Numbered from the stretch's first letter, positions 90 through 26,637 are shown. The stretch: DNA of 64,000 bases from Rhodospirillaceae bacterium (GCA_038146865.1 JAYQSL010000007.1:492638-556637), one strand, 5' to 3'. Notes: generated from the letters alone by a model not told the origin. Translations and numbers: made by a program.

Positions 90-827
90 ATGGAGGCGAA
101 AATGGCATTTTCTAGTTGGCGGGGAATTATAGGTATAATTAAGCCCACGATGAGACCAGGAGGTTTAGAGGACATGATCCGCCTGTTACCCGAGGGTATC
201 GGTGTTATTCCGCTATTTAATGATATTCGCCGCGGCGAACGGACGGAATTCAAAGAGATTATGAAGGATTATGACGCGAAGGTAGCTCTGCTGGCAGAAC
301 AGGGGTGCGATGTAATACACCCTGAGGGAGCTCCACCGTTTATGGTTATGGGTTTGAAGGGAGAGGCAAAAAAGATTCGTTCTTGGGAGAGAAAGCATAA
401 AATACCGATCTTCACATCTGGGACAAATCATATAGCGGCTCTAAAAGCGCTTAAGGTAAAGCGGCTTGTGGGTGCGAGCTATTTTAGAGGTGAAATCAAT
501 GACACTTTTGCCGAATATTTTAAAGCGGCAGGATTTGACGTCCTTGATTTCCAAGGAATGGACGTAGATTTTAACCAGGCGCAAAATTTAGATCCGCATC
601 AGGTTTACGCCTTTATCAAAAATTTAGTGCTTAGGAACAAGCGCGCGCAAGGTATCTATATGCTTGGCACGGGTTGGAAGGTGCTCAGCATAATAGAGTT
701 ACTAGAACAAGATTTGGGACTTCCAGTGGTCCATCCAGTACCTTCTAGAGTTTGGGAGTTTCAAAAGCGGCTCAGGGTTCGTGAACCAAGACAGGGGTAT
801 GGGAGGCTTTTGGCAGACCTGCCGTAG
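90..827 (+). CDS. Asp/Glu/hydantoin racemase superfamily protein (maleate isomerase / arylmalonate decarboxylase-like)
   Basis: 245-aa ORF whose length and overall pattern match the Asp/Glu racemase fold, but it contains only one Cys (EQGCDV), so the family call is tentative. Confidence 0.45.
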   Translation: MEAKMAFSSWRGIIGIIKPTMRPGGLEDMIRLLPEGIGVIPLFNDIRRGERTEFKEIMKDYDAKVALLAEQGCDVIHPEGAPPFMVMGLKGEAKKIRSWERKHKIPIFTSGTNHIAALKALKVKRLVGASYFRGEINDTFAEYFKAAGFDVLDFQGMDVDFNQAQNLDPHQVYAFIKNLVLRNKRAQGIYMLGTGWKVLSIIELLEQDLGLPVVHPVPSRVWEFQKRLRVREPRQGYGRLLADLP

Positions 828-839
828 ATAGCTCTGATT

Positions 840-1316
840 TTGGGCATGCTGCTAACGATGGTGGTTGCAAAGAATGGGTTAATGGAACTTGCTCTTGAGG
901 AAGCAATAGAGGCAGCTTTAAGGGAAGAGGTGCCTGTCGGCGCTGTCGTCATTGACTCTGTCAGTGGAGAAATTTTGGCCGCCGATGGCAATCGCACTGA
1001 AGAGCTCGGGGATCCTACGGCGCATGCCGAGATGCTTGTTTTAAGAAAAGCGGCGTCTCAGTATGGCGGACACCGGCTGATCAATTGTGATCTCTACGTC
1101 ACACTTGAACCCTGCCCCATGTGTGCAGCGGCCATTTCTCTCTTCAGAATTCGCCGCCTGTACTTCGGCGTGTCAGATTCAAAAAGTGGTGGGGTCGAGA
1201 GCGGTCCTCGCATTTTTAATCAATCGACTTGTCATCATGTCCCCGAAATCTACGGCGGAATTGGCGAGGTTCGCGCCAAGGAGCTTTTACAAGAGTTTTT
1301 TAGGGCTCGGCGCTAA
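840..1316 (+). CDS. tadA: tRNA-specific adenosine deaminase (CDA-fold, TadA-like)
   Basis: Cytidine/deoxycytidylate deaminase zinc motifs HAEMLVL and PCPMCAAAI are present. The true start may be the internal Met near 882. Confidence 0.85.
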   Translation: MGMLLTMVVAKNGLMELALEEAIEAALREEVPVGAVVIDSVSGEILAADGNRTEELGDPTAHAEMLVLRKAASQYGGHRLINCDLYVTLEPCPMCAAAISLFRIRRLYFGVSDSKSGGVESGPRIFNQSTCHHVPEIYGGIGEVRAKELLQEFFRARR

Positions 1317-1405
1317 AGTCGATTTTTCCAAAACTGAATTTCCCAATAGCTATTTTACGCCGATGATTTATCTCTCTGAATGGGTAATTATTGGCGGAGT
1401 GTTTA

Positions 1406-2953
1406 TCATTCCTCGAAACCGTACTCTTTCCAGCGTGCGTTGACTTTGTCCATATCGGCTTTGTGAGGTGCCACGGTTGGTGGGTAGCGTTTTCCGCCGT
1501 ATTGCTCCTCCGGTTCAAAATCAAGATTGATTGTGGCATCTATTAAAACCCGACACCATTTTCCTGTCCCAAAAAGCATTGGGTCACGATCTTTCAAACG
1601 GGTTGAGGGATCAAGAAGGGATCCAAAATTTGCAGGAAAGAAAACAATATCATCCTCAGATGCATTTACCCTGTATGCGAAGGCCCAATCGACTGCGCCA
1701 TAATCCCGAATATCTATATCGTCATCCAGCACCCAGACATTTTTGTATCTCAGATGCGCGGAGTTTGATCCCCAAAGGGCGGCGGCGGCTTGTTTGGCTT
1801 GGCCACGATAAGTTTGATTTAATTGGATAAAAACTGTTGTGCCATTATTTGCAGGTGAACAGTGAACATCTGTTACTCCTGGTACGCCTGCCCGTTCTAG
1901 AACATTCCATGCGACCCCGGCGCGCTGTATTGAACTCATGACGCTATTCTCGTTCAACATTTTAGGCAGGGTGCCTTCAAGGGTTCCTCGGAAAATAGGA
2001 TTATTGCGGTGGGTTATGCACGTAACTTTGGTTACATGTTTTGGCCCTGCGTCTCCCCCAAAATATCCAGGGTATTCACCAAAGGGTCCTTCCATTTCGA
2101 AGGTAGAGGGATCAGGATCTATGTAACCCTCGACAACTATTTCTGCGCTAGCAGGTACGAGTAAATCATTGGTTTCGCATTTTACTAATTCGACAGGCTT
2201 TCCGCGGATAGCGCCCATCACGTCGTATTCAGAGACCCCAGTTGGAACGGGGGCTGATGCGCAATAGGGAAGGGAAGGTTCCCACCCGTAAACATGCGCG
2301 ACGGGCATTTTTTGTCCTCGTTCCGCCCATTTTTGAAAATGCACACCCCAATTTTGAGCTCTCCAAAGCAGAACAGGTAGGGTGTCTCTTTGACCAATCA
2401 TTCCACGATATATACCGAGATTATGTACTCCGGTATCCGGGTCCATCGTCACGGTGGCTTGAAAAGTGTTTATGTACCTTCCGCCGTCTTCGCGGTGCCA
2501 TTGAGGGACCGGAAAATCAAATAAATTTATCGAGTCCCCGACCAAGATGTTTTCTTTGACTGGGCCCGTGGCTACCTGAGTGGGTTCAACTCTCTGAGAT
2601 AGATAATATCTGGTTGCTAAAACGAGATCTCGCGCCGGAGAGTCCTTAGGTAAGCCAAGGGTCATCGCCAGTCTCGAGTAGTTCGACATCCCACCGGTGA
2701 AAAGTTGTGAGCATCTCGCACTGTCCTCGTTGTAACCAGTTATGTTTTTGAAGAGTATTGCAGGACCTTCCCCTGTGCCAAAAGCCTTTCGGGCAATGGT
2801 TCCAAGCTCACAATTCCAATCTACTTCAACATCAATTTCTTGAAGTGTATCTTCCTCCTTGAGCGCATCAATCCAACCCCTAAGATCCTCAAACACCCTG
2901 GGTTGCAATCTGTTCGACACCCCGCCAAATGAGTCAATATCATTACTATTCAT
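1406..2953 (-). CDS. UbiD-family (prFMN-dependent) decarboxylase, paralog A
   Basis: Contains UbiD-like motifs (GIYRGM, GYIDPDP, VTDVH). It is about 55-60% identical by eye to the adjacent paralog B. The ORF track extends it to 3118, but alignment with paralog B places the start at the internal Met (MNSNDIDSF...), which removes the overlap. Confidence 0.8.
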   Translation of the reverse strand: MNSNDIDSFGGVSNRLQPRVFEDLRGWIDALKEEDTLQEIDVEVDWNCELGTIARKAFGTGEGPAILFKNITGYNEDSARCSQLFTGGMSNYSRLAMTLGLPKDSPARDLVLATRYYLSQRVEPTQVATGPVKENILVGDSINLFDFPVPQWHREDGGRYINTFQATVTMDPDTGVHNLGIYRGMIGQRDTLPVLLWRAQNWGVHFQKWAERGQKMPVAHVYGWEPSLPYCASAPVPTGVSEYDVMGAIRGKPVELVKCETNDLLVPASAEIVVEGYIDPDPSTFEMEGPFGEYPGYFGGDAGPKHVTKVTCITHRNNPIFRGTLEGTLPKMLNENSVMSSIQRAGVAWNVLERAGVPGVTDVHCSPANNGTTVFIQLNQTYRGQAKQAAAALWGSNSAHLRYKNVWVLDDDIDIRDYGAVDWAFAYRVNASEDDIVFFPANFGSLLDPSTRLKDRDPMLFGTGKWCRVLIDATINLDFEPEEQYGGKRYPPTVAPHKADMDKVNARWKEYGFEE

Positions 2954-2987
2954 TATCTTTGTCTTTCCTGAAGGGTCCAAGTGTTGC

Positions 2988-4529
2988 TTATAGTAAGCCC
3001 TTGCCCCATTTATCGAGGCCCAATTCTTCCCATCGGGCCCTTGCCTTGTCTTGATCTTCCTTAGAGGGATGAACTGTTGGCGGCCAGCGTCGTCCCTGTT
3101 CATCCGGTTCATAATCAAGATTGATTGTGCAATCTAACAAGACACGGTGCCATTTACCTGTTCCAAATAGATGCACGTTTGAGTCTCGAGCTCGAACACT
3201 TGGATCAAGTCCTGCGCCCCAAGTCGAGGGGAATACGATTAAATCGTCTTCACCCGCATTGAATCTCCAGGCTAAAGCCCAATCGATCGCTCCATAATCA
3301 TGGACATCGATATCCTGGTCCACAACGAAGACATGTTTGTACCTAACATGTGATGCGGAGTTACCCCATAGAGCTGCCGCCACTTGTTTTGCTTGTCCAC
3401 GATAAGTTTGGTTAATTTGTACTGCCACATTAATGCCCGCTTGTATTGGCATTCCAAAAACGTCGGTAACCCCTGGGACACCTGCACTTTCTAGTGCGTT
3501 CCAAGCCGTCGCTGATCTCTGAATGGAGCTCATAATATGGTTTTCGCCGTAGGATCCAGGAACTGCACCTTCGAGGGCTCCACGTAATATGGGCCTGTCG
3601 CGATGGGTTATTGCTGTCACCCGAGCAACGTGTTTCGGTGTCTGCTCAGTCGCATAATAGCCGGTGAATTCAGCATATGGGCCCTCGGGTCTGAAAGTCT
3701 GAGGATCCGTTGATATCCATCCTTCGATTACAATCTCGGCGCTGGCCGGCACCTGCAACGGCACTGTTTCACAGTCTACTAATTCGACCGGTTCTCCTCT
3801 AATCGCACCCATAACTTCGTATTCTGAGACATCTCGAGGAACAGGTGAACCTGCCGTAAATCCCATCGTTGGCTCCCAGCCAATCACGAATGCGACGGGC
3901 ATCTCGTCAGCACGGGCCATGTGCTTTGCATAGTGGTTTCCCCATCCCTGCGCCCTCCACAGGAGAACGCCAATATTGGCTTGGTCCAGCGCCATTCCGC
4001 GATAAATACCGACGTTATGAATCCCTGATTCCGGATCCTTAGTGACGCAAGCCGAATACGTATTTATGTAACGACCACCATCGCCACGATTCCATTTCGG
4101 GATCGGGAATTTAAACAAGTCTATATCTCGCCCAGTGATAATATTGTCTTTAACCGGACCTGTGCGGACTGTTTTCGGCGGTATACGTTCTTTAAAAATG
4201 TATCGACACATTTTTACCATATCACGAATGGGGGTGTCGGGTTTTAAACCGAACATCATAGCTAAACGCGAATAGCTTCCCTGACCATTCGTGAAGACCT
4301 CGCCGCACACGCTCTCAGGTGTGTTGTAGTCTTTGATATTCTTGAAAAGGAAAGCCGGGCCAGCTCCAGTGCCTTGCGCCATGCGGACGATCGTCCCGAG
4401 CTCCGTATCCCAATCTACTTCTTGATCAAACTCCGCTAGCTCCCCGGCTTCACGCAGTGCTGCAATCCAACCCCTTAAATCTCCAAAGGCGACGGGTTTT
4501 CTCTCAATTCGGTCGCTGCTTTCATCCAA
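2988..4529 (-). CDS. UbiD-family (prFMN-dependent) decarboxylase, paralog B
   Basis: 513 aa, collinear with paralog A and with canonical UbiD (GIYRGM...VTDVF). Confidence 0.8.
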   Translation of the reverse strand: MDESSDRIERKPVAFGDLRGWIAALREAGELAEFDQEVDWDTELGTIVRMAQGTGAGPAFLFKNIKDYNTPESVCGEVFTNGQGSYSRLAMMFGLKPDTPIRDMVKMCRYIFKERIPPKTVRTGPVKDNIITGRDIDLFKFPIPKWNRGDGGRYINTYSACVTKDPESGIHNVGIYRGMALDQANIGVLLWRAQGWGNHYAKHMARADEMPVAFVIGWEPTMGFTAGSPVPRDVSEYEVMGAIRGEPVELVDCETVPLQVPASAEIVIEGWISTDPQTFRPEGPYAEFTGYYATEQTPKHVARVTAITHRDRPILRGALEGAVPGSYGENHIMSSIQRSATAWNALESAGVPGVTDVFGMPIQAGINVAVQINQTYRGQAKQVAAALWGNSASHVRYKHVFVVDQDIDVHDYGAIDWALAWRFNAGEDDLIVFPSTWGAGLDPSVRARDSNVHLFGTGKWHRVLLDCTINLDYEPDEQGRRWPPTVHPSKEDQDKARARWEELGLDKWGKGLL

Positions 4530-4710
4530 AGGTAAAACCCCTTCAATTTGCTTAAAAATATAAAAACTTTTCTGGTCTTCTATTGCATGGGCAGAGTTCT
4601 GTCCACTTTACTACCTGCCCGTTTACCTGCAACACGCCAGAACATTGCCCTCAACAGAGGTGCCGCGATATGCTATCGATAGGTTTAGATTTTTGGAGAT
4701 AAACTGGCCT

Positions 4711-5532
4711 ATGGGTAGAGTGCTGACTAATGAGCAGGTAAATAGTTATAATACCGCGGGGTTTCTTGGGCCAATCGAGCTACTAAAACCAAAAGAAGCG
4801 GCTGAGATCCGTCACAAGATAGAAAAAGTTGAGTCCGAACTTGGAGGACAAATCCAATCGCGGTGTAAGATAAAAGCTCATATACCCTTTCTTTTTTTGT
4901 GCGAGCTGATCTCGCACCCTAAACTTCTTGATGCCGTAGAAGATATTATCGGGCCAAATATAATGTGCTGGGGCTCTAGTTTTTTTCAGAAAGAGGCGGG
5001 GGATCCGGGTTTTGTCTCGTGGCATCAAGACTCGACATACTACGGTTTAGAACCTTGCGAGACACTTACAGCTTGGATTGCAATTTCTGAAGCCTCACGT
5101 GAGTCAGGCTGCATGCGTTTCTTACCCGGGTCACATAATCAGGGGATATATGATCACGAGGAGACCCTGGCTGAAAATAATATTTTATCTCGGGGCCAGA
5201 CTGTTCTGGGTATTAATGAGGAAAAGGCTATTCACGTGCCATTAAAGGCCGGTGAGTTTTCCTTTCACAAGGAGGATGTATTACATGCATCCGACCCGAA
5301 TAAGTCTGATGACCGACGTATAGGTTTATCGGTGCACTATATTGCGCCAAAAGTTAAAGAAACAGGGTTTCCCGGTGCCAGTGCCATGCTGCTCAGGGGA
5401 GAAGATCATTTTGGGTTTTGGGCCGAGGACATCTGGCCGAAAGACGATTTTGATCGCGAGGCCCTAAAAGAAGTAGATCGTGTATGGAAGATGTATCAAA
5501 TGAAGCCCGAAGACCGGCAACCTTCGCTCTGA
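4711..5532 (+). CDS. Phytanoyl-CoA dioxygenase (PhyH) family Fe(II)/2-oxoglutarate oxygenase
   Basis: Conserved WHQDSTYY and a HxD...H facial-triad pattern. The ORF track start at 4645 is also possible; the Met at 4711 (MGRVLTNEQ) fits typical family N-termini. Confidence 0.7.
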   Translation: MGRVLTNEQVNSYNTAGFLGPIELLKPKEAAEIRHKIEKVESELGGQIQSRCKIKAHIPFLFLCELISHPKLLDAVEDIIGPNIMCWGSSFFQKEAGDPGFVSWHQDSTYYGLEPCETLTAWIAISEASRESGCMRFLPGSHNQGIYDHEETLAENNILSRGQTVLGINEEKAIHVPLKAGEFSFHKEDVLHASDPNKSDDRRIGLSVHYIAPKVKETGFPGASAMLLRGEDHFGFWAEDIWPKDDFDREALKEVDRVWKMYQMKPEDRQPSL

Positions 5533-6332
5533 GTCAAAAAAAAATTCCAAATGCCAGTATCAATGTCTCGTGGCGGGAAGAGGGTCATGGGCAGCCGATT
5601 TTTTTTATTCACGGTATTGGAACCGGATCTGAATATTGGGCGGACCAATTTTCTATCCTTTCGAGTGAGTACCACACTATTGCCTGGGATATGCCCGGTT
5701 ATGGTACATCAGAAAATGTTCCTGCCCCACCGTTCGATGTGGACTCTTATACCAACGTCGCCATTGAACTTATTTCATGTTTGGGGATACGGAATTGTCA
5801 TCTAGTGGGCCAATCTCTTGGTGCATTGATCGCGGCACGGATAGCAGCTCAATTTCCGACAGTTGCATTATCTCTCACACTATCTCACCCCTTAGTTGGA
5901 CTTGGTAGGATGCCAAAGAGTGAGAGAGAAGCTGTCGCGGCCGCTAGAATTCGATTGTTTGAAGAACTGGGTCCCCTCAGATTTGCGCATGAAAAAGGCC
6001 CTGCCATATTAGCACCCAATGTAAATCACCTTCTTCGACAAAAGGTAATTGAATTAATGTCCAGTGTCAGAGCACCGGGTCTAAGAAACGCTGTTCATAT
6101 GATGAGTGAAGCGGATATTTTTGATGATCTGTCTGTAATTAAGGTTCCGACAATGGTCATCTGCGGAGATTGTGATCCTGTTGCCCCTTTGAAGGTTTGT
6201 CGGTCGATTTCAGCCGCATCAGACACCTTCATGTTAGAGGTTTTAGCAGATGTTGGGCATTATGGCGCGGTAGAACAACCCAAGATTTACGCGGACCTAC
6301 TAAAACGTTTCTTTCGTAAATCTAGTGCTTAA
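5484..6332 (+). CDS. Alpha/beta-fold hydrolase
   Basis: HGIGTGSEYW oxyanion region, GQSLG nucleophile elbow, and a C-terminal His. It overlaps the upstream gene by 49 nt, and there is an A9 run at the junction. Confidence 0.65.
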   Translation: MEDVSNEARRPATFALSQKKIPNASINVSWREEGHGQPIFFIHGIGTGSEYWADQFSILSSEYHTIAWDMPGYGTSENVPAPPFDVDSYTNVAIELISCLGIRNCHLVGQSLGALIAARIAAQFPTVALSLTLSHPLVGLGRMPKSEREAVAAARIRLFEELGPLRFAHEKGPAILAPNVNHLLRQKVIELMSSVRAPGLRNAVHMMSEADIFDDLSVIKVPTMVICGDCDPVAPLKVCRSISAASDTFMLEVLADVGHYGAVEQPKIYADLLKRFFRKSSA

Positions 6333-6432
6333 ATACCGGAAAAATAAGATTCGTACTTGAAACAGACGTTGACCTGTGTACAGTCCCAAATTGAGGGTTA
6401 TTGTTAACAGAAGAGACAGGGAGAAATCTGTA

Positions 6433-7395
6433 ATGAAGTTTATTTTTACTGGCTGCGTCGCGTTAAGTGCTATCGCTCTTTCGGCGTCGGCAACTGCTCA
6501 GACCTTTGGGATTGGGTCAACTAAGGCGGGGGCGGTAGCCCAAATTACCGCAACTATCTCAAAAGCTGTATCGGAACATGCTCCTGGCGTTCAAATGCGA
6601 AAGCAAACAATGGGTGGTACCCAACAGTACATACCCGTTGTCAACGCAGGAGAGCTTGGTTTTGGTATTTCCAACATTACCCAGTACTACATGGCACAGG
6701 AAGGAATAGCTCTTTCTAAAGGGACGAAATATAGCGATTTGCGCATTATTGCGACCATGATGAAATTCACGGTAAGCCCCGTGGTTCCCATCAAAAGTGG
6801 TATAAATAGCGTTGCAGACCTCAAAGGTAAGCGCATTTCCTCTGGTTTCAAAGGGGCCCCTTTGTTTCACTATATAACCAGTGGAGCTCTTGCGACCGAC
6901 AAACTGACTTATGATGACGTGAAAAAGGTTCCTCAGGTCGGTCTAGTTCAACATTGGCGCGCCTTTATTTCTGGAAAAACAGATATGGCAATAGCTGCCG
7001 CAGGAACAGGTTGGGTCAAGCAAATGCAGGCTAAAATTGATGGCGGCGTTAAGCACCTCTCATTCGATACGTCTCCAGAGGCTTTGGCTCGAATGCAGAA
7101 GTGGTATCCAAAGTCAGAATGGCAAATAGTTAAACCTGCCAAAGGTCTGACTGGGGTGCTAAAACCGACTAACTTTGTTGCCTATGACTTCCTTCTTTGG
7201 ACACACAAAGGGATGTCTGATGATGTTGCCTATAAAGTGACGAAAGTCATGCACACAAAGGAAAAGCAACTTAAAGCCGGGGGTCCTCTGTGGCGTTCCT
7301 ATCAAGCAAATGCCCGTCTTCAAAAAGATCAGGGCTATGCTTATCATCCAGGCGCAATTAAATATTATAAAGAAGTGGGTCTCTGGAAACGATAA
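6433..7395 (+). CDS. TRAP transporter solute-binding protein, TAXI family
   Basis: Signal peptide MKFIFTGCVALSAIALSASATAQ. The length and its position immediately upstream of a fused TRAP permease fit the family. Confidence 0.7.
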   Translation: MKFIFTGCVALSAIALSASATAQTFGIGSTKAGAVAQITATISKAVSEHAPGVQMRKQTMGGTQQYIPVVNAGELGFGISNITQYYMAQEGIALSKGTKYSDLRIIATMMKFTVSPVVPIKSGINSVADLKGKRISSGFKGAPLFHYITSGALATDKLTYDDVKKVPQVGLVQHWRAFISGKTDMAIAAAGTGWVKQMQAKIDGGVKHLSFDTSPEALARMQKWYPKSEWQIVKPAKGLTGVLKPTNFVAYDFLLWTHKGMSDDVAYKVTKVMHTKEKQLKAGGPLWRSYQANARLQKDQGYAYHPGAIKYYKEVGLWKR

Positions 7396-7511: not shown

Positions 7512-9491
7512 GTGATGGCTGGCGATGTGATGAGTGAGGGAACACCTGAAAATAAAAAAGGTGCAGCTCTGATTGCTGAGTGGGATGAGTCTCCGTTCGT
7601 TAAGTCTTCCGCATTGATCCTCGGTGCATTTATTACCCTTATTGCCCTGGCTTGGGCGATAGAACTGCCACTTAAACTCGGACTTGAGTGGCTGGACGAA
7701 CAGGCGATGGTTGCTTGTCTTGGGTTGGTGATAGGCGTGGTCTTTATTCGATATCCCGCGAGTGGCGGGAGAAAAAGGCATTCTATTCCCTGGTATGATG
7801 CGATTTGCGCGGTGTCTGGTCTCGGGATCTCGGCTTGGCTTATATCTATCTATGGAGACATCGAACTAAATCCATTTGCCATGCGCGATCAGATGTTTTG
7901 GATCAGTATGATTTTACTGCCTTTAGTTTGGGAGTCGCTGAGACGAACTGCAGGGCTTAGCCTCACCATTATCTTTTCCGCTTTTGTTCTGTACGCTTTT
8001 ATCGGTCACTGGGTCCCAGGAGAGATGTTCAAGGGGGTTGAACAGGATCCCTATCGTCTTATAGCCGAGTTGGGCACCAACAATGCTTCCATTCTTGGTC
8101 TACCTCTCAAGATTATTGTTTTAACAGTTGTTCTCTTCATTTGGATGGGGCAATTACTCCTGCATACGGGCGCATCAGAGTGGTTTACCGATGTAGCTGC
8201 AGCTATGATGGGCCGATCCCGCGGTGGTTCTGCCAAAATAGCGGTTGTGGCCTCTGGCTTCTTCGGCTCTATTTCCGGATCGGCTGTTGCCAATGTCGCT
8301 TCGACTGGCGTCATAACAATCCCCTTAATGAAACAGGCCGGATATGACTCTAAGAGTGCCGGTGCTATCGAAGCGGTTGCTTCTACGGGTGGTCAGATAA
8401 TGCCTCCGATAATGGGTGCTGCCGCTTTTTTGATGGCAGAGATTTTGGAGCTAGAATATACAGAGATTATATTGGCAGCGTTGGTACCGGCAGCGCTTTA
8501 CTACCTTGCTGTATTTGTTCAGGTTGATCTGGAAGCTGCCAAAAATAAGATTGCTCCTCTGCCCAAAGACCGAATACCTAGAATGGCCAAAGTAATGGGT
8601 GAGGGTTGGTTCTTTATTCTTCCATACGTAATTCTTGTTTGGACATTATTTTCACTCAATATGCCCCCTCAAGAAGCGGCCTTCTGGGCGGCGATCTCTG
8701 TGGCTGTGGTAAGTATTATTTTCGGTTACAAGGGCCATCGAATTACCCCGGCCCAATTGTGGGATTCTATTGCTGGATGTGGTCGTGCATCTGCAGATAT
8801 CGTAGCGATTGGTGCAATGGCAGGAATTATAATTGCTATTCTGGATCGGACAGGGCTTGGTCAGGCACTTACATTGTTGCTGGCATCCGTTGGTGAAGAT
8901 AGCGTCTTCTTACTTTTAGTCTTGACCGCGATCGTTTCAATTTTGCTTGGCATGGGGATGCCAACATCTGCAATCTATCTGCTGTTGGCTACCATGATTG
9001 CGCCATCGCTAGTGAAGTTGGGTATCAATCCGATCGCGGCGCATATGTTCGTTCTTTATTTTGGTTTGATGTCTATGATTACGCCGCCAGTGGCGATAGC
9101 AGCTTTTGCGGCGGCCTCGCTCTCGGGGGCCAGGCCGATGGAGACAGGTGTGACCGCGGTTAGGCTCGGTTGGATCGCTTATATTATCCCATTTGTCTTT
9201 GTCCTATCTCCAGCCCTATTGGGTCAGGGATCTGCGTTTGAAATAATAGAGGCCTCAGTTACCGCTTTGGTAGGTGTTTGGGTCGGATCCTGTGGGTTAA
9301 TAGGTTTTGTCTTTGGACCGCAAAATAATTTCAACCGTCTACTGCTGTTTGCAGCAGGTGTTCTCTTGTTACTGCCGGCTTCAGCAATAGATTACGGTTT
9401 TGCGATTAATGGAATTGGATTCGTTATTGGTGCGGTTGTAGTAATTAAAGACTGGCTGAGAAATCGAGACACTGGTTCCGCTGAGGCTTAG
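7512..9491 (+). CDS. TRAP transporter fused permease (TAXI-associated DctQ/DctM fusion)
   Basis: 659-aa polytopic membrane protein with DctM-like repeats, directly downstream of the TAXI receptor. Confidence 0.75.
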   Translation: MMAGDVMSEGTPENKKGAALIAEWDESPFVKSSALILGAFITLIALAWAIELPLKLGLEWLDEQAMVACLGLVIGVVFIRYPASGGRKRHSIPWYDAICAVSGLGISAWLISIYGDIELNPFAMRDQMFWISMILLPLVWESLRRTAGLSLTIIFSAFVLYAFIGHWVPGEMFKGVEQDPYRLIAELGTNNASILGLPLKIIVLTVVLFIWMGQLLLHTGASEWFTDVAAAMMGRSRGGSAKIAVVASGFFGSISGSAVANVASTGVITIPLMKQAGYDSKSAGAIEAVASTGGQIMPPIMGAAAFLMAEILELEYTEIILAALVPAALYYLAVFVQVDLEAAKNKIAPLPKDRIPRMAKVMGEGWFFILPYVILVWTLFSLNMPPQEAAFWAAISVAVVSIIFGYKGHRITPAQLWDSIAGCGRASADIVAIGAMAGIIIAILDRTGLGQALTLLLASVGEDSVFLLLVLTAIVSILLGMGMPTSAIYLLLATMIAPSLVKLGINPIAAHMFVLYFGLMSMITPPVAIAAFAAASLSGARPMETGVTAVRLGWIAYIIPFVFVLSPALLGQGSAFEIIEASVTALVGVWVGSCGLIGFVFGPQNNFNRLLLFAAGVLLLLPASAIDYGFAINGIGFVIGAVVVIKDWLRNRDTGSAEA

Positions 9492-9585
9492 GCTTGATGA
9501 GGCCTGCCCGCTGAGTTGAATTAACCTGTCATTTCGCACTTACGATTAAGAAAACTGGTTTTTCTTAGCTGTGCTGTGCGAGGGC

Positions 9586-10029
9586 CTAGAACAGTGGTTT
9601 CTCTCTGATCAGTGATTTCCCTTTTTCATAAATGTTTTCGGGCCAGGGTACGGCTTTTCTAAAAATTGTGTCGAGGGATACGCAAATCTGATCATTTATT
9701 GCGCATATTTCTTTAGTACAAGCATCGATCATTACAGCCCATACATGCAAACTTTTGGGGGTAAAATTTATAAAACAAGATCGTATCTGAATAAGATCTC
9801 CTGGAAGAATTTCTCGTTTATACTCATAGTTCTCTGTCACTGCAGCCATACCTCTATTATTTTCACGCATGTACTGGGGAGTTATGCCTGCAGTTGTAAA
9901 GGTATAGTAGGCCGACTCATTGAAAGCTCGACTGTAATAACGAACATTTGCATGACCCATATGGTCCATTTCCATCGGGTAAAACATACCTTGGTAAGCG
10001 AGGTTAAAGTCTTCGAATTCTTGCAGCAC
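9586..10029 (-). CDS. Hotdog-fold acyl-CoA thioesterase (4HBT-like)
   Basis: 147 aa with a layout resembling YbgC/4HBT thioesterases (HANVRYY ... LPGDLIQIRS ... LHVWAVMID). Confidence 0.5.
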   Translation of the reverse strand: MLQEFEDFNLAYQGMFYPMEMDHMGHANVRYYSRAFNESAYYTFTTAGITPQYMRENNRGMAAVTENYEYKREILPGDLIQIRSCFINFTPKSLHVWAVMIDACTKEICAINDQICVSLDTIFRKAVPWPENIYEKGKSLIREKPLF

Positions 10030-10121
10030 AGGATTTGCCTAATCAGAGATAAAAAAAGCCAAAATCATCGAAAAATGATAAAAAACTAGGGGTAGGGAAA
10101 TTTTTCTGTCAATTTGATGGT

Positions 10122-10910
10122 TTATACAGTCGGAGATTTCCCACCATCCACGTTGATCGCCGTTCCTGTAATATAGCCTGCTTCGTCCGATGCTAGGAAG
10201 CATGCAATATTTGCAAATTCCTCGGTTTCTCCAATTCTCCCCATCGGAATGTTGCGGGCTTCAACCATTTCCTGGATAAAAGAGTCATAATCGAGATTTG
10301 GTTTAAGCTCTTGGTGTCGTCTCACCCATTGATCAGATTTTATAAAACCAACCAATAGTGCATTTACCAATATATTATCTGATGCAAACTCGTTTGCTAG
10401 GGTTTTGGTTAATGCCATTCCAGCCGCCCGCGTCACTGCGGTAGGTGCTCCTCTTGCCGCAGGCGCCTTAGCACCTATGTTCAAAGTATTAATTATTCGG
10501 CCCCATCTTTGTTTTTTCATTTGGGGGATAGCGTGTCTAATCAACCGCACTGCGGAGAAAAATTTTAAGTCAAAATCTGTCTGCCAATCTTTATCCGAAA
10601 TTTGCATAAAGGGTCCGGCACGAGAGGTTCCAGCATTATTAACTATGATGTCTATCTTCCCCAAGCCCTTTTCTGCTTCATCGAAAGCTCGGTCGGTTTC
10701 CGCAGCATTTAATAAATCACAGGAAATTGAGATGACCTTACCGTTGCCATGGGAACTTATTTCCGAGCGAGCTGTATCGAGGTCTTTTTGATTGCGAGCC
10801 AGTATCGCAATATCGGCACCGGCAGCTGCAAATTTTAGGGCGACACCCTTGCCCAGTCCCTTGCTGCCCCCTGTTATGAGCGCGCTTCTTCCATCTAATC
10901 TAATATTCAT
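10122..10910 (-). CDS. Short-chain dehydrogenase/reductase (SDR)
   Basis: TGGSKGLG Rossmann motif, NNAG, and a Y...K catalytic pair. The start is placed at MNIRLDG so that it only minimally overlaps purD. Confidence 0.8.
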   Translation of the reverse strand: MNIRLDGRSALITGGSKGLGKGVALKFAAAGADIAILARNQKDLDTARSEISSHGNGKVISISCDLLNAAETDRAFDEAEKGLGKIDIIVNNAGTSRAGPFMQISDKDWQTDFDLKFFSAVRLIRHAIPQMKKQRWGRIINTLNIGAKAPAARGAPTAVTRAAGMALTKTLANEFASDNILVNALLVGFIKSDQWVRRHQELKPNLDYDSFIQEMVEARNIPMGRIGETEEFANIACFLASDEAGYITGTAINVDGGKSPTV

Positions 10911-12195
10911 GACCAGATCTCCCATCTGCAATCACCCGCCACCCAATGTCGCGCCGGAAAAAACCCTCTGGCCAGTCGATAGAGTCCAGTGCTTGATACG
11001 CGTTCTCATGGGCGGCGGCTATGTTATCCCCCATAGCCGCTACCCCCAGAACTCTGCCTCCATTGGCAATCAAGTCGCCGTTTTCATTTCTAAGCGTTCC
11101 AGCATGAAATATCTTTACATTATCAGAGTGAGCAATGGGATCGGTCTTCTTTATTATACTGCCCCCCGTGTAGGAGCCTGGATACCCCCGTGCAGCCATC
11201 ACAACGATCATTGCGGCTTCTTCATACCACCTTAAATCAAAACCATTTAATACGCCGTCATGGGAGGCGATGAGCGCTGGTAAAATATCCGACTTCAAGC
11301 GCATCATGAGAACCTGGCATTCAGGGTCGCCAAACCTTACATTATACTCCAACAGCCTTGGTTCACCATTCTGGATCATTAGACCCGCGTAGAGAATGCC
11401 TTTGAAAGGCGCACCTTCTGAGGCCATACCTTTAATTGTAGGCTCAATAATCTCAAGCATAACCTTATGAGCGACCTTTTCAGTAACGACGGGTGCGGGG
11501 GAATAAGCTCCCATTCCACCCGTATTCGGGCCGGTGTCGCCCTCTCCGACCCTTTTGTGATCTTGTGCAGAGGCAAGTGGCAAAGCGGTTTTTCCATCGC
11601 ATAAAGCAAAAAAGCTTGCCTCTTCCCCTGGTAAGAATTCCTCAATTATAATTTCCGATCCAGCTTCCCCAAAAAGGCCTTGCTCAAGCATTTCCTCTAT
11701 CGCCCGGTTGGCTTCTTCCATCGTATCCGCAATCATTACACCTTTCCCGGCGGCTAAGCCGTCTGCTTTGACGACGATGGGTCCTTCAAGGGACTTGGCA
11801 AAATTGCGCGCAGAAGCGGCGTCTTTAAATCGACCATAGGCAGCGGTTGGAATATTATGTCGGGCGCAAAAATCTTTCATGAAGCCTTTTGATCCCTCGA
11901 GCTTTGCAGCTATCTGATTTGGACCGAAGTATTTAACACCAATTTTTGTGAGATGGTCCCCAAGGCCTGCCACCAGCGTTACTTCTGGTCCAATTACTAC
12001 AAATTCAACAGAATTCTCTTTAACAAAGCTGATCAAACCGGGGATATCATCTGACGCTAGCGCGACGCATTCCGCTTCTTCTGCTATGCCAGCATTGCCA
12101 GGGGCGCACCACAGTCGTGTTACCAGCGGGGATCCAGCAATTGCCCAACAGAGAGCGTGCTCACGTCCACCATTGCCGATTACTAGTACCCTCAT
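10900..12195 (-). CDS. purD: Phosphoribosylamine--glycine ligase
   Basis: Full-length ATP-grasp PurD (MRVLVIGNGGREHAL...). The start is taken at the internal Met. Confidence 0.9.
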   Translation of the reverse strand: MRVLVIGNGGREHALCWAIAGSPLVTRLWCAPGNAGIAEEAECVALASDDIPGLISFVKENSVEFVVIGPEVTLVAGLGDHLTKIGVKYFGPNQIAAKLEGSKGFMKDFCARHNIPTAAYGRFKDAASARNFAKSLEGPIVVKADGLAAGKGVMIADTMEEANRAIEEMLEQGLFGEAGSEIIIEEFLPGEEASFFALCDGKTALPLASAQDHKRVGEGDTGPNTGGMGAYSPAPVVTEKVAHKVMLEIIEPTIKGMASEGAPFKGILYAGLMIQNGEPRLLEYNVRFGDPECQVLMMRLKSDILPALIASHDGVLNGFDLRWYEEAAMIVVMAARGYPGSYTGGSIIKKTDPIAHSDNVKIFHAGTLRNENGDLIANGGRVLGVAAMGDNIAAAHENAYQALDSIDWPEGFFRRDIGWRVIADGRSGHEY

Positions 12196-20368: not shown

Positions 20369-21781
20369 TTATTCCGCGGCTATGGAAGAGGGTTTTGTGA
20401 GCCGGTTACGGGACCTGTGTTTAATTCGTGGTCGAACATTCTTCTCGATAAATTCTACTATGAGATGTGCCACATCCACACCTGACGCCCTTTCAATACC
20501 TTGTAACCCTGGTGATGAATTAATTTCCAAAACTTTAGGTCCAGTTTTGGAACGTAAAAAATCAACGCCAGCAACATTTAGGCCTAGAATTTTTGCTGCC
20601 TTTGTCGCTACTGAACGCTCGACCCGGCTTAATTTAGTCGCGGTAACGGCCCCCCCTTGATGAACATTGGCCCGGAAGTCTCCGTCTGTTGCCTTCCTCT
20701 TCATCGCTCCAACAACTTTACCACCAACTACCAGACAGCGCACATCTTCTCCTGCCGCCTCACTTATAAACTCTTGAACTAGAAAATTTGCTTTGATTCC
20801 CCTGAACGCACCGATTACAGACTCCGCGGCCTTTTTTGTTTCCGTTAGGACTACCCCCTTACCTTGAGCTGACTCCACTAATTTTACAATCAATGGGCCC
20901 CCTCCCACTATATCAATCAACTTTTTTGTATCTCGCGGAGAGTGAGCGAAGGCTGTGACTGGCATATCTACTCGATGCTGCGACAAAATTTGATGCGCCA
21001 ATAATTTGTCCCGCGAAGCACCAATTGCCGAAGCCGTATTTAGACAGAACGAACCCATTAACTCAAACTGACGGACTACCGCCATGCCATATGAGGTGAC
21101 GGAGGGGCCTATTCGTGGGATTACGGCATCAAAACGAGGTAAGGCGCCGCCGTCGATGTGGACCTCCGGGGAGCTCGCATTTATGTTCATGTAACAACGA
21201 GTGGTATTTATAATTTCGCAGACGTGACCGTGCTCCTCAATCACGTTAGCAAGACGGCGGCATGTGTAGTTGGTTGGCTCACGGGTCAGCAAACCAATCC
21301 TCAGAGGTCTACGAACCGGCCGGCTTTTTTTGAGGTTGTCGTAAAGATTGTATGACAATTCATTTTGTAGAAAAGTCCGATTTGGATCTACAATCATGTC
21401 CTTGGAGATAGCCTGGCGCCCCAGCAACATGCGACGCTGCATTGTGTCCCTATTTGTTAAAGTTACTTCGATAGGCCATTCCACCGAACCGATTTTGACA
21501 CTAGTTCGGATTACGTAGCGCAACTCAGCTTCACCATTTGAACTCGTCACTTCCCGACGACCAATCAATGGTGCAGAGCAGAAAATTTCTATGTCGGGCC
21601 TTTCGGGTATCGGATGAATTCCAAAGCGGACATTAGGCTTTTGGGCGTCACCGAATGGTTCTATGGCGAAAGCATGTAATGCTGAGGTTCGTGCTCCAGT
21701 ATCAACTTTGGCTGTCAATGCCGGTAGCCCAAGTTCTGGGAGGCTTACCCATTCCTCCCAACCCAAAATAATTTTGTCCAT
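20369..21781 (-). CDS. rimK: Fusion protein: N-terminal retropepsin-like (RimK-associated aspartic protease domain) plus C-terminal RimK-type ATP-grasp glutamate ligase
   Basis: The N-terminus (GLPALTAKVDTGARTSALHA) looks like a retropepsin. The C-terminal approximately 300 aa is an ATP-grasp RimK/LysX-like domain. Confidence 0.75.
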   Translation of the reverse strand: MDKIILGWEEWVSLPELGLPALTAKVDTGARTSALHAFAIEPFGDAQKPNVRFGIHPIPERPDIEIFCSAPLIGRREVTSSNGEAELRYVIRTSVKIGSVEWPIEVTLTNRDTMQRRMLLGRQAISKDMIVDPNRTFLQNELSYNLYDNLKKSRPVRRPLRIGLLTREPTNYTCRRLANVIEEHGHVCEIINTTRCYMNINASSPEVHIDGGALPRFDAVIPRIGPSVTSYGMAVVRQFELMGSFCLNTASAIGASRDKLLAHQILSQHRVDMPVTAFAHSPRDTKKLIDIVGGGPLIVKLVESAQGKGVVLTETKKAAESVIGAFRGIKANFLVQEFISEAAGEDVRCLVVGGKVVGAMKRKATDGDFRANVHQGGAVTATKLSRVERSVATKAAKILGLNVAGVDFLRSKTGPKVLEINSSPGLQGIERASGVDVAHLIVEFIEKNVRPRIKHRSRNRLTKPSSIAAE

Positions 21782-23290: not shown

Positions 23291-23319
23291 AATTTGGCTT
23301 CCTAGTGTCTTCAGTGATC

Positions 23320-24828
23320 TTACCAAATCGACTTGCCCGAACCAGGCAAGCCTAAATCGGACCAAATAGAGTCTATTTTGCTAATGGTAGCATTATCCAT
23401 GCGAATTTTTTTACCCCACTCGCGTTGCGTTTCTGGAGGTATCTTGGTCGTCGCATCGATCCCCATTTTGGATCCAAGGCCGGAGTAGGGGGAGGCAAAA
23501 TCCAAATAATCTATAGGCGTATTTTCTAACATTACGGTGTCTCTCGATGGATCAGTATGAGTTGCAACTGCCCACACCACATCCTGCCAATTTCGCGCAT
23601 CAATGTCGTCATCTACAACAATTACAAATTTAGTATAGGTAAATTGCTTAAGGTAAGACCATACGGCCATCATGATCCGTCTCGCATGCCCCGGATACGA
23701 TTTTTTAATGGAGACTACCGCTATGCGATAAGAGCATGCCTCAGGCGGTAGCCAAAAATCGACAACTTCAGGGAATTGTTTTGTAAATAATGGAACAAAA
23801 ACATCATTGAGTGCCTCGCCCAAAGTGGATGGTTCATCCGGAGGACGACCGGTGAAGGTTGAGAGATAGATGGGGTTTTGCCGCATTGTAACAGCGCTGA
23901 CCGTAAACACTGGGAATTTTTCAATTGAATTATAAAAGCCGGTGTGGTCACCGTAGGGACCTTCTGATCGATAATCTGTCACGCTTACGTGCCCTTCAAG
24001 AACAATTTCAGCTTCTGCGGGGACAGATAAGGGGACTGTTTTGCACTTTACGAGAGATAACTTCTTCCGCCGCAAAAGGCCTGAAAATTCGTACTCTGAG
24101 AGTTTTTCGGGAACAGGTGCCACTGCAGCGATGGTTGTCCCAGGATCTGCACCTAAAACTACTGCCGCGGGAAGATCAGTTCCTCGTTGAGACGCACTTT
24201 TCAGAGCCTCTGCACCGCCTCGGTGTTCGAGCCACCGCATCAGAGTTTTATTTTTAGACAACAGTTGCATACGGTAAATACCAAGGTTCGTGCGGCCATT
24301 GTCTTCGGTTACTACGATAGGCCAAGTAATTAGCGGCGCTGGTTCTCCAGGCCAACACGTTTGGATAGGAAGGCTATTTAAATTTATTTCGTCACCCTCT
24401 ATGACGATCTCTTGGCAAGGTGCACGCCTAACAGTCTTTGGTTTCATCGCTAAAACAGGTTTGACGAGTGGAACCATTGATTTAGCTTCACGGAGGTTAG
24501 AGGGGGGGTCTGGCTGTTGCAAAAATGCGAGCTGTTCCCCGAATGAACGGAGCTCCTCGCGAGAGCGGCCCATTCCAAGGGCCACGCGTTCCACCGTTCC
24601 GAAAAGATTTGCAAGAACTGGGATTTCTGATTTCGTTCCATCAGCCCTAATTGAGTTCTCAAAAATTACAGCGGGTCCCCGATCTGACAGCAGCCTCGTT
24701 TGAATCTCTGTCATTTCATGGACGGTGGAAACTGGCTCAGAAACTCGAATGAGCTCATTCCGACGTTCCAGATCAAGAATAAAATCTCTTAGACTGTCAA
24801 AAGTCATTTGCCCAAGTGTTCTAATCAA
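23320..24828 (-). CDS. ubiD: 4-hydroxy-3-polyprenylbenzoate decarboxylase (canonical UbiD)
   Basis: Full-length 502-aa UbiD, divergent from ubiA. Confidence 0.85.
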
Positions 24829-24915: not shown

Positions 24916-25635
24916 ATGAGAGAAGAGGTCGAATTTGCACTTTCTTACCCGTTTGCAATTCCTCGTTCTTCCTTCATGTTTACTGTCGACCAGACCCAAC
25001 CCCTGAAGAAGTTGAGCGATGGCTTTCGATCGAGATTGCCGGTAATCGCGGTGGGTTCAAATCAGTCACCCTCACAACTTACCCGCAAATACAAAGGTCT
25101 TGCCGACACAGGAGAAATACCTGCAGAACGTGCAGTATTAAAAAATTTTGACGTGGTTTACGCCGCACATTTAGCGGGATATGGCTCAGTGCCTGCGACC
25201 TTCCAATCCTCGCCGGGGACATTAGTTACGATATTTGTGTTATGGCTGACAGAGATCCAGCTGTCTCGGATGCATCAAACAGAGTCCAATTATTATTTTG
25301 ATAAGTTAAACGGACTTGAAATTAAAACAGAATTTGGTTTTGAACTTGATACGGCATACGCATACACCGCTCGCAATGGTTGCTTAAATATTGAAGGCAG
25401 CCCATTAGCTTTGGCTGAGATATCTGCGAAAGACAGGTACTTTGACGAAGCGACACAATTGCAGGCGCAAGAAGCTGTTCGGGATATTACCGACGCGGGA
25501 AAAGAAATCGGGACCTTTGTCCTCGAAACAATCGAAGGGGCATCGGTTCGCGACAGTCGGATTAAGTTTTTGGCAAAGAAAGCGCTGCAGCCCACTTTCG
25601 ATCGAAAACTAATTGTTGATTTGAGTGAATATTAG
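24916..25635 (+). CDS. Hypothetical protein, possibly gamma-glutamyl cyclotransferase-like (AIG2/GGCT fold)
   Basis: A weak motif VIAVGSNQSPSQL resembles the YGSN signature. I recognise no other domains. Confidence 0.35.
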   Translation: MREEVEFALSYPFAIPRSSFMFTVDQTQPLKKLSDGFRSRLPVIAVGSNQSPSQLTRKYKGLADTGEIPAERAVLKNFDVVYAAHLAGYGSVPATFQSSPGTLVTIFVLWLTEIQLSRMHQTESNYYFDKLNGLEIKTEFGFELDTAYAYTARNGCLNIEGSPLALAEISAKDRYFDEATQLQAQEAVRDITDAGKEIGTFVLETIEGASVRDSRIKFLAKKALQPTFDRKLIVDLSEY

Positions 25636-25710: not shown

Positions 25711-26637
25711 TCAAAAAATTCTGCTTGCAAAAATACCTGCGAGGAAAAGCCAGCCGAAAATTTTATTTGATTGAAATTTTCTTAAGCAGTCACTGGGGCT
25801 ATTTATGTCCACGCTCCAAATTTGCCAAAATAATTGGATTGAAGCGATCCACAAACCTAGGTAGAAAGGCCAGCTCAAAGTCAATGAAAAGCCTGCCTGA
25901 AAAAACATTATTAAGGCCAGTGAATAAAAACTAAATAACCAGGGCTTGCTGCCGAGGCCAAATTTTCTTGCGGTCGACTTTACGCCCGCTTTTGGATCGT
26001 ACGCTCGATCTTGGTGTGCGTAAATTGTATCGTATCCTAGGGTCCAAAAGACTCCTCCAGCGTAAAGCCATAAAGCTTGCTCGTTGATTTCTCCTCTTAC
26101 GGCTGCCCATCCAAGCAGTGCTCCCCAATTGAATGTGAACCCCAGAAAAAGCTGCGGCCAGAATGTAATCCTTTTCATCAAGGGATAGGTGAATACGAGC
26201 AAGAGAGCAGTAGCGCCAATTATCCAAGAGAACATATTGAGGGAGAGCAGCACAACAAGTCCTACAGTTAATTGAACAAGCAAAAACAATGTTGCCCGTG
26301 TAACTGTGATCTCACCGCTAGGAAGTGGACGATTTTTAGTGCGTGCTACCTGAGCGTCAATGTTTCTATCTATTATATCGTTGAGAGTGCAGCCTGCTCC
26401 TCGCATCACAATTGCACCAAATCCAAACGTGATAAATAGCCAAAGGTCGTCATAACTCTCATAGCAAAGAGCTATGCTCCACCAGCATGGAAAAAGCAGC
26501 AGCCAAGTGCCTATAGGTCTGTCATAACGGGCTAATCGAATGTAAGGATGCAATGATGAAGGAGTGTACCTCTCAACCCAGTTATCCACTGGAATATCAC
26601 TTGCAGTCTCAATCGACGTTTTAGGTGATCGTTCCAT
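25711..26637 (-). CDS. ubiA: 4-hydroxybenzoate polyprenyltransferase
   Basis: UbiA prenyltransferase with NDxxDRxxD motifs (LNDIIDRNIDAQ) and about 8 transmembrane helices. Confidence 0.9.
   Translation of the reverse strand: MERSPKTSIETASDIPVDNWVERYTPSSLHPYIRLARYDRPIGTWLLLFPCWWSIALCYESYDDLWLFITFGFGAIVMRGAGCTLNDIIDRNIDAQVARTKNRPLPSGEITVTRATLFLLVQLTVGLVVLLSLNMFSWIIGATALLLVFTYPLMKRITFWPQLFLGFTFNWGALLGWAAVRGEINEQALWLYAGGVFWTLGYDTIYAHQDRAYDPKAGVKSTARKFGLGSKPWLFSFYSLALIMFFQAGFSLTLSWPFYLGLWIASIQLFWQIWSVDINSPSDCLRKFQSNKIFGWLFLAGIFASRIF

Follow-up and report, generated by a model that had tools for sequence, protein, structure and literature searches.

A conserved pair of adjacent UbiD-family decarboxylase genes of an uncharacterised subfamily in a Rhodospirillaceae bacterium

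A 64,000-nucleotide stretch of DNA from a Rhodospirillaceae bacterium (GCA_038146865.1, JAYQSL010000007.1:492638-556637), referred to below as the window, carries near its beginning two adjacent genes of the UbiD family of decarboxylases dependent on prenylated flavin mononucleotide (prFMN). The upstream gene is called B and the downstream gene A in this study. The two form a real, conserved UbiD gene pair, which belongs to a well-known family and an uncharacterised subfamily, and the result is a fairly ordinary refinement of the annotation. The reading that we favour, with a probability of roughly 55%, is that A and B encode two catalytically competent but separate prFMN-dependent decarboxylases of different specificity, which would act in one catabolic route for an aromatic or heteroaromatic acid.

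The features of the region are summarized in Table 1. The longest open reading frame (ORF) for A spans 1406..3118, but the part beyond 2953 overlaps the end of B and the true start of A is the ATG at 2953; the identical locus is present in three NCBI metagenome-assembled genome (MAG) assemblies, annotated with the same 513- and 515-amino-acid products. The preliminary description of this DNA, made by eye, had placed the paralogues side by side on the same strand about 34 nt apart, and they were indeed found on the minus strand with a gap of exactly 34 nt. Since such a spacer is too short for a promoter or a terminator, B and A are probably co-transcribed in the lineage of the window. The similarity seen by eye was upheld by pairwise alignment, BLASTP giving 58% identity across 505 residues (E = 0). 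All three Pfam domains, UbiD_N, UbiD, and UbiD_C, were present in A and in B, and both proteins scored above the cut-off of TIGR00148, "UbiD family decarboxylase" (287.8 bits for A and 294.5 bits for B against 244.85). A and B are genuine UbiD paralogues and members of the UbiD family of prFMN-dependent decarboxylases. On NF008175, the model of canonical UbiD with an equivalog cut-off of 788, A and B reached 176 and 171 bits, respectively. The proper name for both genes is "UbiD family decarboxylase" and not ubiquinone UbiD, and the "4-hydroxy-3-polyprenylbenzoate decarboxylase" labels carried by relatives of A are over-annotations.

Table 1 Features of the window discussed in the text (positions counted from the first nucleotide of the window).
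Feature	Position	Strand	Remarks
Amdase/maleate-isomerase-superfamily gene	90-827	+	Beyond tadA; best PDB match 4IX1, a hypothetical protein
Paralogue A, downstream gene	1406..2953	-	515 aa, ATG at 2953; UbiD-family decarboxylase, A type
B-A spacer, B stop to A start	2954..2987	-	34 nt; AGGAAAG Shine-Dalgarno-like site
Paralogue B, upstream gene	2988..4529	-	513 aa, TTG start; UbiD-family decarboxylase, B type
Divergent intergenic region, B / PhyH operon	4530..4710	.	Promoter-like element inside
PhyH-family Fe(II)/2-oxoglutarate oxygenase	4711..5532	+	Divergent from B; beside the pair in 18 loci
Alpha/beta-fold hydrolase	5484..6332	+	Weakly PcaD-like; start overlaps end of PhyH gene; with the pair in 16 loci
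TAXI-family TRAP transporter solute-binding subunit	6433..7395	+	In the operon divergent from the pair
Fused TRAP permease, DctQM type	7515..9491	+	In the operon divergent from the pair
Canonical ubiquinone-pathway UbiD	23320..24828	-	Outside the A/B unit
239-aa ORF between ubiD and ubiA	24916..25635	+	No Pfam match
ubiA, 4-hydroxybenzoate polyprenyltransferase family	25711..26637	-	One ORF from ubiD

The nucleotide identity between A and B was 58%, and that at the third codon positions was 34.5%; no stretch suggestive of gene conversion was seen in the nucleotide comparison of the two genes. On account of these values the duplication is old and not a recent repeat, so that the term "tandem duplication" used in the preliminary description holds in the evolutionary sense but not in that of a recent repeat. 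Homologues in a large protein collection split into A-like sequences, 62-86% identical to A, and B-like sequences, 61-71% identical to B. A scan of one genome per species yielded 80 loci (loci are designated below by L with a number). In 54 of the 80 species genomes, an A-type gene was immediately preceded by a B-type gene with the same orientation; these were mainly MAGs of marine Rhodospirillaceae and other alphaproteobacteria, together with Defluviicoccus. In a neighbour-joining tree, the A-type and B-type sequences formed sister monophyletic clades, each spanning many genera, and the species were grouped alike inside each clade; these mirrored sister clades therefore point to a single old duplication followed by joint vertical inheritance. 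The ratio of nonsynonymous to synonymous substitution rates (dN/dS) was 0.05-0.11 for A and 0.07-0.15 for B, with B evolving about 1.5 times faster than A. Both genes are under strong purifying selection.

The residues expected to bind prFMN and the metal were read from a MAFFT alignment to A. niger Fdc1, whose sequence as used here agreed with that of PDB 4ZA4 at all but one position and left the published numbering usable. The Glu-Arg-Glu triad of Fdc1 (E277, R173, and E282) corresponded to E288, R183, and E293 in A and to E282, R177, and E287 in B, and the metal ligands Asn and Glu (N168 and E233 in Fdc1) to N178 and E242 in A and to N172 and E236 in B. The equivalents of N168, R173, E233, E277, and E282 were invariant in 55 tandem A, 55 tandem B, and 24 solitary A-type sequences. 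At the position of the third metal ligand, H191 of Fdc1, A carries Asn201 and B carries Gly195, and the Asn/His/Glu set of Mn2+ ligands that anchors the prFMN phosphate in the family is incomplete in both. Thus, of the prFMN/Mn-binding residues, whose conservation the preliminary description had proposed to check, the triad, Asn, and Glu are kept in both paralogues, whereas the His ligand is absent from both. The stretch from the Asn-x4-Arg motif to the H191 position was ungapped against Fdc1 and the characterised decarboxylases HudA and PhdA (described below), and His occupied the H191 position in Fdc1, HudA, PhdA, E. coli UbiD, ShVdcC, and HmfF.

The replacement of this His was not confined to the window. 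At the H191 position, the A-type sequences had Asn in 46 cases and His in 9, and the B-type sequences had His in 34 and Gly in 21, the Gly occurring only in the clade that holds the window (21 species). The Asn variant was also seen in solitary A-type genes adjoining ubiX. In related 50% clusters, 31 of 113 representatives were without His (Asp in 15, Gly in 9, Gln in 5, and Asn in 2), and the motif "QGWGxH", with Gly for His and a His four residues on, was present in the cluster representatives P0124, P0129, P0135, P0136, and P0243. Judged from these alignments, the canonical Asn/His/Glu metal site appears to be less universal than the characterised enzymes imply. The His four residues downstream of the ligand position was nearly invariant (H205 in A and H199 in B), and it might, as a speculation, substitute as a metal ligand. 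The metal site without His thus appears to be a natural variant within the family, neither a sign of decay nor a ground for exclusion. Because the catalytic residues are conserved and purifying selection is strong, neither A nor B should be a pseudo-enzyme; this counters the possibility raised in the preliminary description that one of the paralogues is such a protein, though the His is lost in both. As a separate observation, in the UbiD-family protein encoded at 4939-6513 of locus L096, Ala occupies the position of the first triad Glu.

The substrate pockets were compared at positions taken from the literature on Fdc1 and HudA (PMC7976604). The residues common to A and B were, in A numbering, W197, Q200, E335-N336, S340, R344, H400, and Y403. 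In HudA, Asn318 forms a hydrogen bond with the ring nitrogen of a bound imidazole ligand (PMC7976604), and this residue aligned with the invariant Asn336 of A and Asn330 of B, which is part of an invariant Glu-Asn pair. Other positions differed between A and B and were fixed within each clade, namely Y294/F288, N397/S391, L401/V395, S445/A439, and L446/G440 (A/B), and a further fixed difference was formed by N334 and S337 of A, where B has small residues. Since these signatures are fixed per clade and also persist in members beyond the tandem clade, A and B look like two specificity types.

AlphaFold models of A and B had mean confidence values (predicted local distance difference test, pLDDT) of 82 and 79 and predicted template modelling scores (pTM) of 0.84 and 0.81, respectively, with a weak loop at about residues 432-476. 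A Foldseek search with the models gave a probability of 1.0 and TM-scores of 0.7-0.8 to HudA, PhdA, VdcC, UbiD, HmfF, and Fdc1; A and B are thus predicted to have the UbiD fold. The top sequence match among solved structures was PhdA, the phenazine-1-carboxylic acid decarboxylase of Mycolicibacterium fortuitum (PDB 7PDA), with E = 7e-72 and 38% identity for A and E = 4e-64 and 34% identity for B. PhdA, whose substrate is an N-heteroaromatic acid, resembles the pair in its fold and in the Glu-Arg-Glu triad (PhdA Glu269 corresponds to Glu293 of A), but it keeps the His ligand, carries "GDQ" at the site of the invariant Glu-Asn motif of the pair, and is the product of a single gene that forms a homo-hexamer. 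The HMMER alignment to PhdA stopped near residue 440 and left unmatched the C-terminal helix common to HudA and Fdc1. The best structural match of A was HudA (PA0254), the pyrrole-2-carboxylate decarboxylase of Pseudomonas aeruginosa (PDB 7ABN and 4IP2; Foldseek E ~1e-41), and this alignment was full-length and included the C-terminal "W..YGF" helix. Tyr279 of HudA corresponds to Tyr294 in A and to Phe288 in B. HudA differs in that its identity to the pair is only ~30%, its metal site includes His, its Trp322 corresponds to a Ser in A and B, and it is a homodimer encoded by a single gene. No curated model exists for decarboxylases of the PhdA/HudA type. With 38%, 34%, and ~30% identity, a shared equivalent of Asn318, and other pocket residues that differ, the link to PhdA and HudA appears to be one of resemblance and not of orthology.

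Two known systems had been offered in the preliminary description as precedents for a heteromeric decarboxylase made of tandem UbiD paralogues. One of them, VdcC/VdcD, does not apply, because VdcD is a zinc-ribbon accessory or activator protein of less than 10 kDa and no UbiD paralogue (PMC8379154). VdcC itself (of VdcC/VdcD, BsdC/D) is a UbiD-family aromatic acid decarboxylase and a good structural match to B, whereas on the VdcC model NF041204, which has its cut-off at 650, A reached 263 bits and B 280 bits. There was no room for a small VdcD-like gene in the gaps of 34 nt between B and A, ~90 nt between A and tadA, and 181 nt upstream of B, and vdcB (ubiX) was absent beside the pair. The other precedent, the phenylphosphate carboxylase PpcA/PpcB of Thauera aromatica, is a valid case of two side-by-side UbiD paralogues as subunits of one enzyme, and both its alpha and beta subunits are listed as members of the UbiD family (PMC12391406). 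However, A and B were far under its cut-offs, with 199 and 204 bits on TIGR02723 (alpha, 565) and 228 and 251 bits on TIGR02724 (beta, 469). No genes for its gamma (phosphatase-like) or its delta or small subunit were found beside the pair, and the setting is also unlike, with an aerobic host, oxygenase neighbours, and A- and B-type genes that are each found alone elsewhere. A third system for comparison was the xanthine-8-carboxylate decarboxylase (XCDC) of Cupriavidus sp. LA-1, a recently characterised catabolic UbiD enzyme for an N-heteroaromatic acid, whose gene cluster also includes a Mo-hydroxylase and ubiX (PMC12391406). Mo-hydroxylases are likewise present in some of the A-type and B-type loci, but XCDC is encoded by a single gene; the comparison was one of cluster content. 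A function of the pair as xanthine-8-carboxylate decarboxylase in the lumazine pathway was rejected on this gene-content comparison, the loci examined being without an amidase-signature isomerase and a pterin deaminase.

The two types also occurred apart. An A-type gene only was present in ~20 genomes, in three of which it directly adjoined ubiX, and one B-type gene stood alone beside a Mo-hydroxylase cluster. B was absent from L049 and reduced to a C-terminal remnant in L062, with A intact in both, and in the tree both loci were nested among tandem-carrying lineages. The length of the B-A spacer ranged from 1 to 450 nt across the loci and was 23-38 nt in the lineage of the window. Spacers of 83-188 nt with promoter-like hexamers and palindromes were observed in more than 25 species: those of L014-L026 (83-113 nt) had TTGACG-N17-TATCAC followed by the palindrome CCATACGGTAGCGTATGG (e.g., L014 ~9900-9990), which was also present upstream of B in L009, and those of L028-L058 (142-188 nt) had CATGCA-N4-6-TGCATG. 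In L020, a 1.2-kb segment was inserted between B and A (~8800-9990). In the relatives with long spacers or the insert, these elements suggest that A may be under separate, substrate-responsive regulation. A family of LysR-type genes (cluster 25) has a member in L020.

In L047, one ORF of 1048 amino acids (8396-11542) covered both B and A. Compared with sister loci, a short run of adenines close to the 3' end of B was longer by one base, and this candidate for a natural fusion was rejected as a single-base insertion, which is probably an error of long-read assembly. A natural B-A fusion (~1000 amino acids with two matched stretches) was not found among the top 150 cluster representatives. Separately, in some genomes from soil and freshwater, three to four UbiD-family genes, distant paralogues included, lay within 20 kb; these were L090 (a Burkholderiales MAG), L095 (Faunimonas), and L096.

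The preliminary description had counted three UbiD homologues inside 25 kb, as was found, and had placed the third, a canonical ubiD, next to ubiA. The third homologue scored 669 bits on NF008175 (cut-off 788) and 632 bits against E. coli UbiD structures, and was only ~27% identical to A and B; it is canonical and near ubiA, but an ORF of 239 amino acids intervenes between the two. Two paralogues of the PmbA/TldD metallopeptidase family, at 21947-23365 and 28903-30336 (both on the minus strand) and 5.5 kb apart, flank the ubiD-ubiA region. For ubiX, whose product is the source of prFMN, a tblastn search was conducted with an E. coli UbiX sequence as the query. Beside solitary A-type genes, ubiX was found at 1869-2423 of L074, 11684-12232 of L076, and 11697-12257 of L085, with 58-60% identity to E. 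coli UbiX; the genomes with a ubiX-adjoining A-type gene include Xanthobacter sp. KR7-225. This adjacency supports the prFMN dependence of the A type, even with Asn for His. For the organism of the window, the presence of a canonical ubiD implies a UbiX encoded elsewhere in the genome.

The neighbouring genes point to the use of imported acids. In the clade of the window, a four-gene operon (PhyH-type oxygenase, hydrolase, TAXI, and TRAP permease) is divergent from the pair, and in unrelated genomes UbiD genes of the A and B types repeatedly have TAXI-TRAP genes as neighbours. The top NCBIfam match of the PhyH-type protein was "chlorinating enzyme" (partial and under the cut-off), with further matches to SyrB2 and CytC3, and its closest solved relative was the uncharacterised "monooxygenase" 6ZYK; as an HxD motif (WHQD) is present, hydroxylase rather than halogenase activity is expected. 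In a second large tandem group, the divergent position is taken by genes for a Rieske ring-hydroxylating dioxygenase (alpha and beta subunits). The solitary relatives had as neighbours TAXI-TRAP genes, HpaB- or VanA-type oxygenases, Mo-hydroxylases, amidohydrolases, and coenzyme A ligases. From this pattern of neighbours, a role in the catabolism of an imported aromatic or N-heteroaromatic acid is suggested; the nearest characterised enzymes, PhdA and HudA, use N-heteroaromatic acids. A cytochrome c oxidase operon at ~30.6-35.7 kb of the window indicates that the organism is aerobic. Upstream of B, a promoter-like element GTGGACA-N17-ATAGAA was seen at 4577-4606 on the minus strand, with similar elements at the same place in L008, L009, and L027, and a scan of 700-5000 for promoters and terminators gave counts not above those of shuffled sequence. 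On the other side of the pair, tadA and further housekeeping genes represent conserved synteny only. Thirteen loci of the clade of the window have retained the Amdase-like gene, which lies beyond tadA and downstream of the pair.

Under the favoured reading, B and then A would be co-transcribed in the lineage of the window, and each protein would bind prFMN at a metal/phosphate site made of Asn and Glu, with Asn201 (A) or Gly195 (B) in the place of His. The prFMN would be supplied by a UbiX encoded beyond the window. Each enzyme is expected to decarboxylate its substrate via the Glu-Arg-Glu triad, with Glu293 of A and Glu287 of B as the proton donor. Because the pocket sets are invariant within each clade and each type is found alone, we infer two separate homo-oligomeric enzymes; they would act on related but different substrates in parallel or successive steps. 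The substrate is presumed to be an aromatic or N-heteroaromatic carboxylic acid imported by the TAXI-TRAP transporter encoded nearby, and the oxygenase and hydrolase of the adjacent operon may process the acid further. The canonical ubiD at 23.3 kb would serve ubiquinone synthesis and be unrelated to the A/B unit.

Several points weigh against this reading. The subfamily is uncharacterised as to substrate, activity, and quaternary structure, and the roles of A and B are predicted. The His ligand is lost from both proteins and present in all six characterised enzymes compared, so that cofactor binding is an assumption here. The tblastn search with E. coli UbiX found no ubiX in the 64-kb window and none in the tandem loci either. 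The pocket columns equivalent to Fdc1 437-439 fall in the low-confidence loop of the AlphaFold models, and hence three of the signature positions are placed by alignment alone. Finally, some observations on the pair fit a hetero-oligomer as well, in which A and B would be parts of one (de)carboxylase similar to phenylphosphate carboxylase alpha/beta, with two kinds of active site or with a catalytic and a supporting subunit. These are the strict order of B then A in the 54 genomes with mirrored trees, the co-location of B-type and A-type genes in at least three unrelated contexts (L093, L095, and L069), the short spacer in the lineage of the window, and the high correlation of pairwise distances of A with those of B (r = 0.93; partial r = 0.83 controlling for TadA), in addition to the precedent captured by TIGR02723/TIGR02724. 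The mirror-tree correlation was judged non-discriminating as evidence for a complex, since co-inherited paralogues with similar constraints are expected to give the same values. Moreover, every catalytic residue is kept in both proteins, each type is also found alone, L049 and L062 have lost B while A stayed intact, the long spacers of many relatives hold promoter-like elements of their own, the only apparent fusion came down to a single base, and the scores and missing accessory genes set the pair far from PpcA/PpcB. No evidence pointing specifically to one heteromeric enzyme was found in this analysis. We therefore regard a single hetero-oligomer as possible, if unlikely, and the evidence taken together favours functionally coupled but separate enzymes.

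A bolder reading is that A and B form a UbiD enzyme for which both paralogues are obligatory, or a tightly coupled two-step module; a His-free metal site and two pocket shapes would then serve to remove successive carboxyl groups from polycarboxylated aromatics or N-heteroaromatics. We consider this rather improbable; if it were true, the candidate substrates would be pyridine or benzene polycarboxylates of marine dissolved organic matter, and the pair would mark a widespread, unrecognised route in oceanic Rhodospirillaceae-like bacteria. Another explanation, that B is catalytically impaired or free of cofactor in this lineage and is now a structural or regulatory partner or is being lost, would account for the Gly195 of the 21 species where other B-type proteins keep the His seen in every structurally characterised UbiD enzyme examined, and for the faster evolution of B. 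However, dN/dS within the Gly clade is 0.07, all 55 B sequences keep N172, R177, E236, E282, and E287, the "QGWGxH" motif occurs in several unrelated UbiD clusters, His is lacking from this column in more than a quarter of the 113 representatives, and H199 is nearly invariant, which makes an impaired B quite improbable. As to the direction of the reaction, reversibility is a general property of the UbiD family (PMC7976604, PMC8379154), and the pair could in principle mainly carboxylate, adding CO2 to an aromatic or heteroaromatic ring in the manner of UbiD-like carboxylases of anaerobic aromatic degraders. The organism is aerobic as judged from its cytochrome c oxidase operon, the neighbours are oxygenases and an organic-acid uptake transporter and not kinases, phosphatases, or ATP-dependent activating enzymes, and the scores lie far under the phenylphosphate carboxylase models; carboxylation is accordingly a very slim chance. 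A recent redundant tandem duplicate, kept for gene dosage with no functional divergence, would agree with the common family, strand, and adjacency of the genes, but amino-acid and nucleotide identity are both 58% with 34.5% at third positions, A and B form separate clades that each extend across many genera, and the pocket differences are fixed between the clades. This last explanation is already refuted by the sequence data and carries practically no weight.

UbiD enzymes are sought as catalysts of reversible (de)carboxylation, and most of the family, which comprises thousands of 50% clusters, is without an assigned substrate. The subfamily described here is notable as a two-gene unit in many marine alphaproteobacteria, with a link to organic-acid uptake and oxygenases and with a variant of the metal site. 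Identification of the substrate would add a step to the turnover of marine aromatic acids and would probe the extent to which the canonical Mn2+ site is needed.

Elsewhere in the window, an ORF at 20369-21781 on the minus strand encodes a fusion protein, in which a "putative ATP-dependent zinc protease" domain (PF05618) at the N-terminus precedes a RimK-type ATP-grasp ligase.

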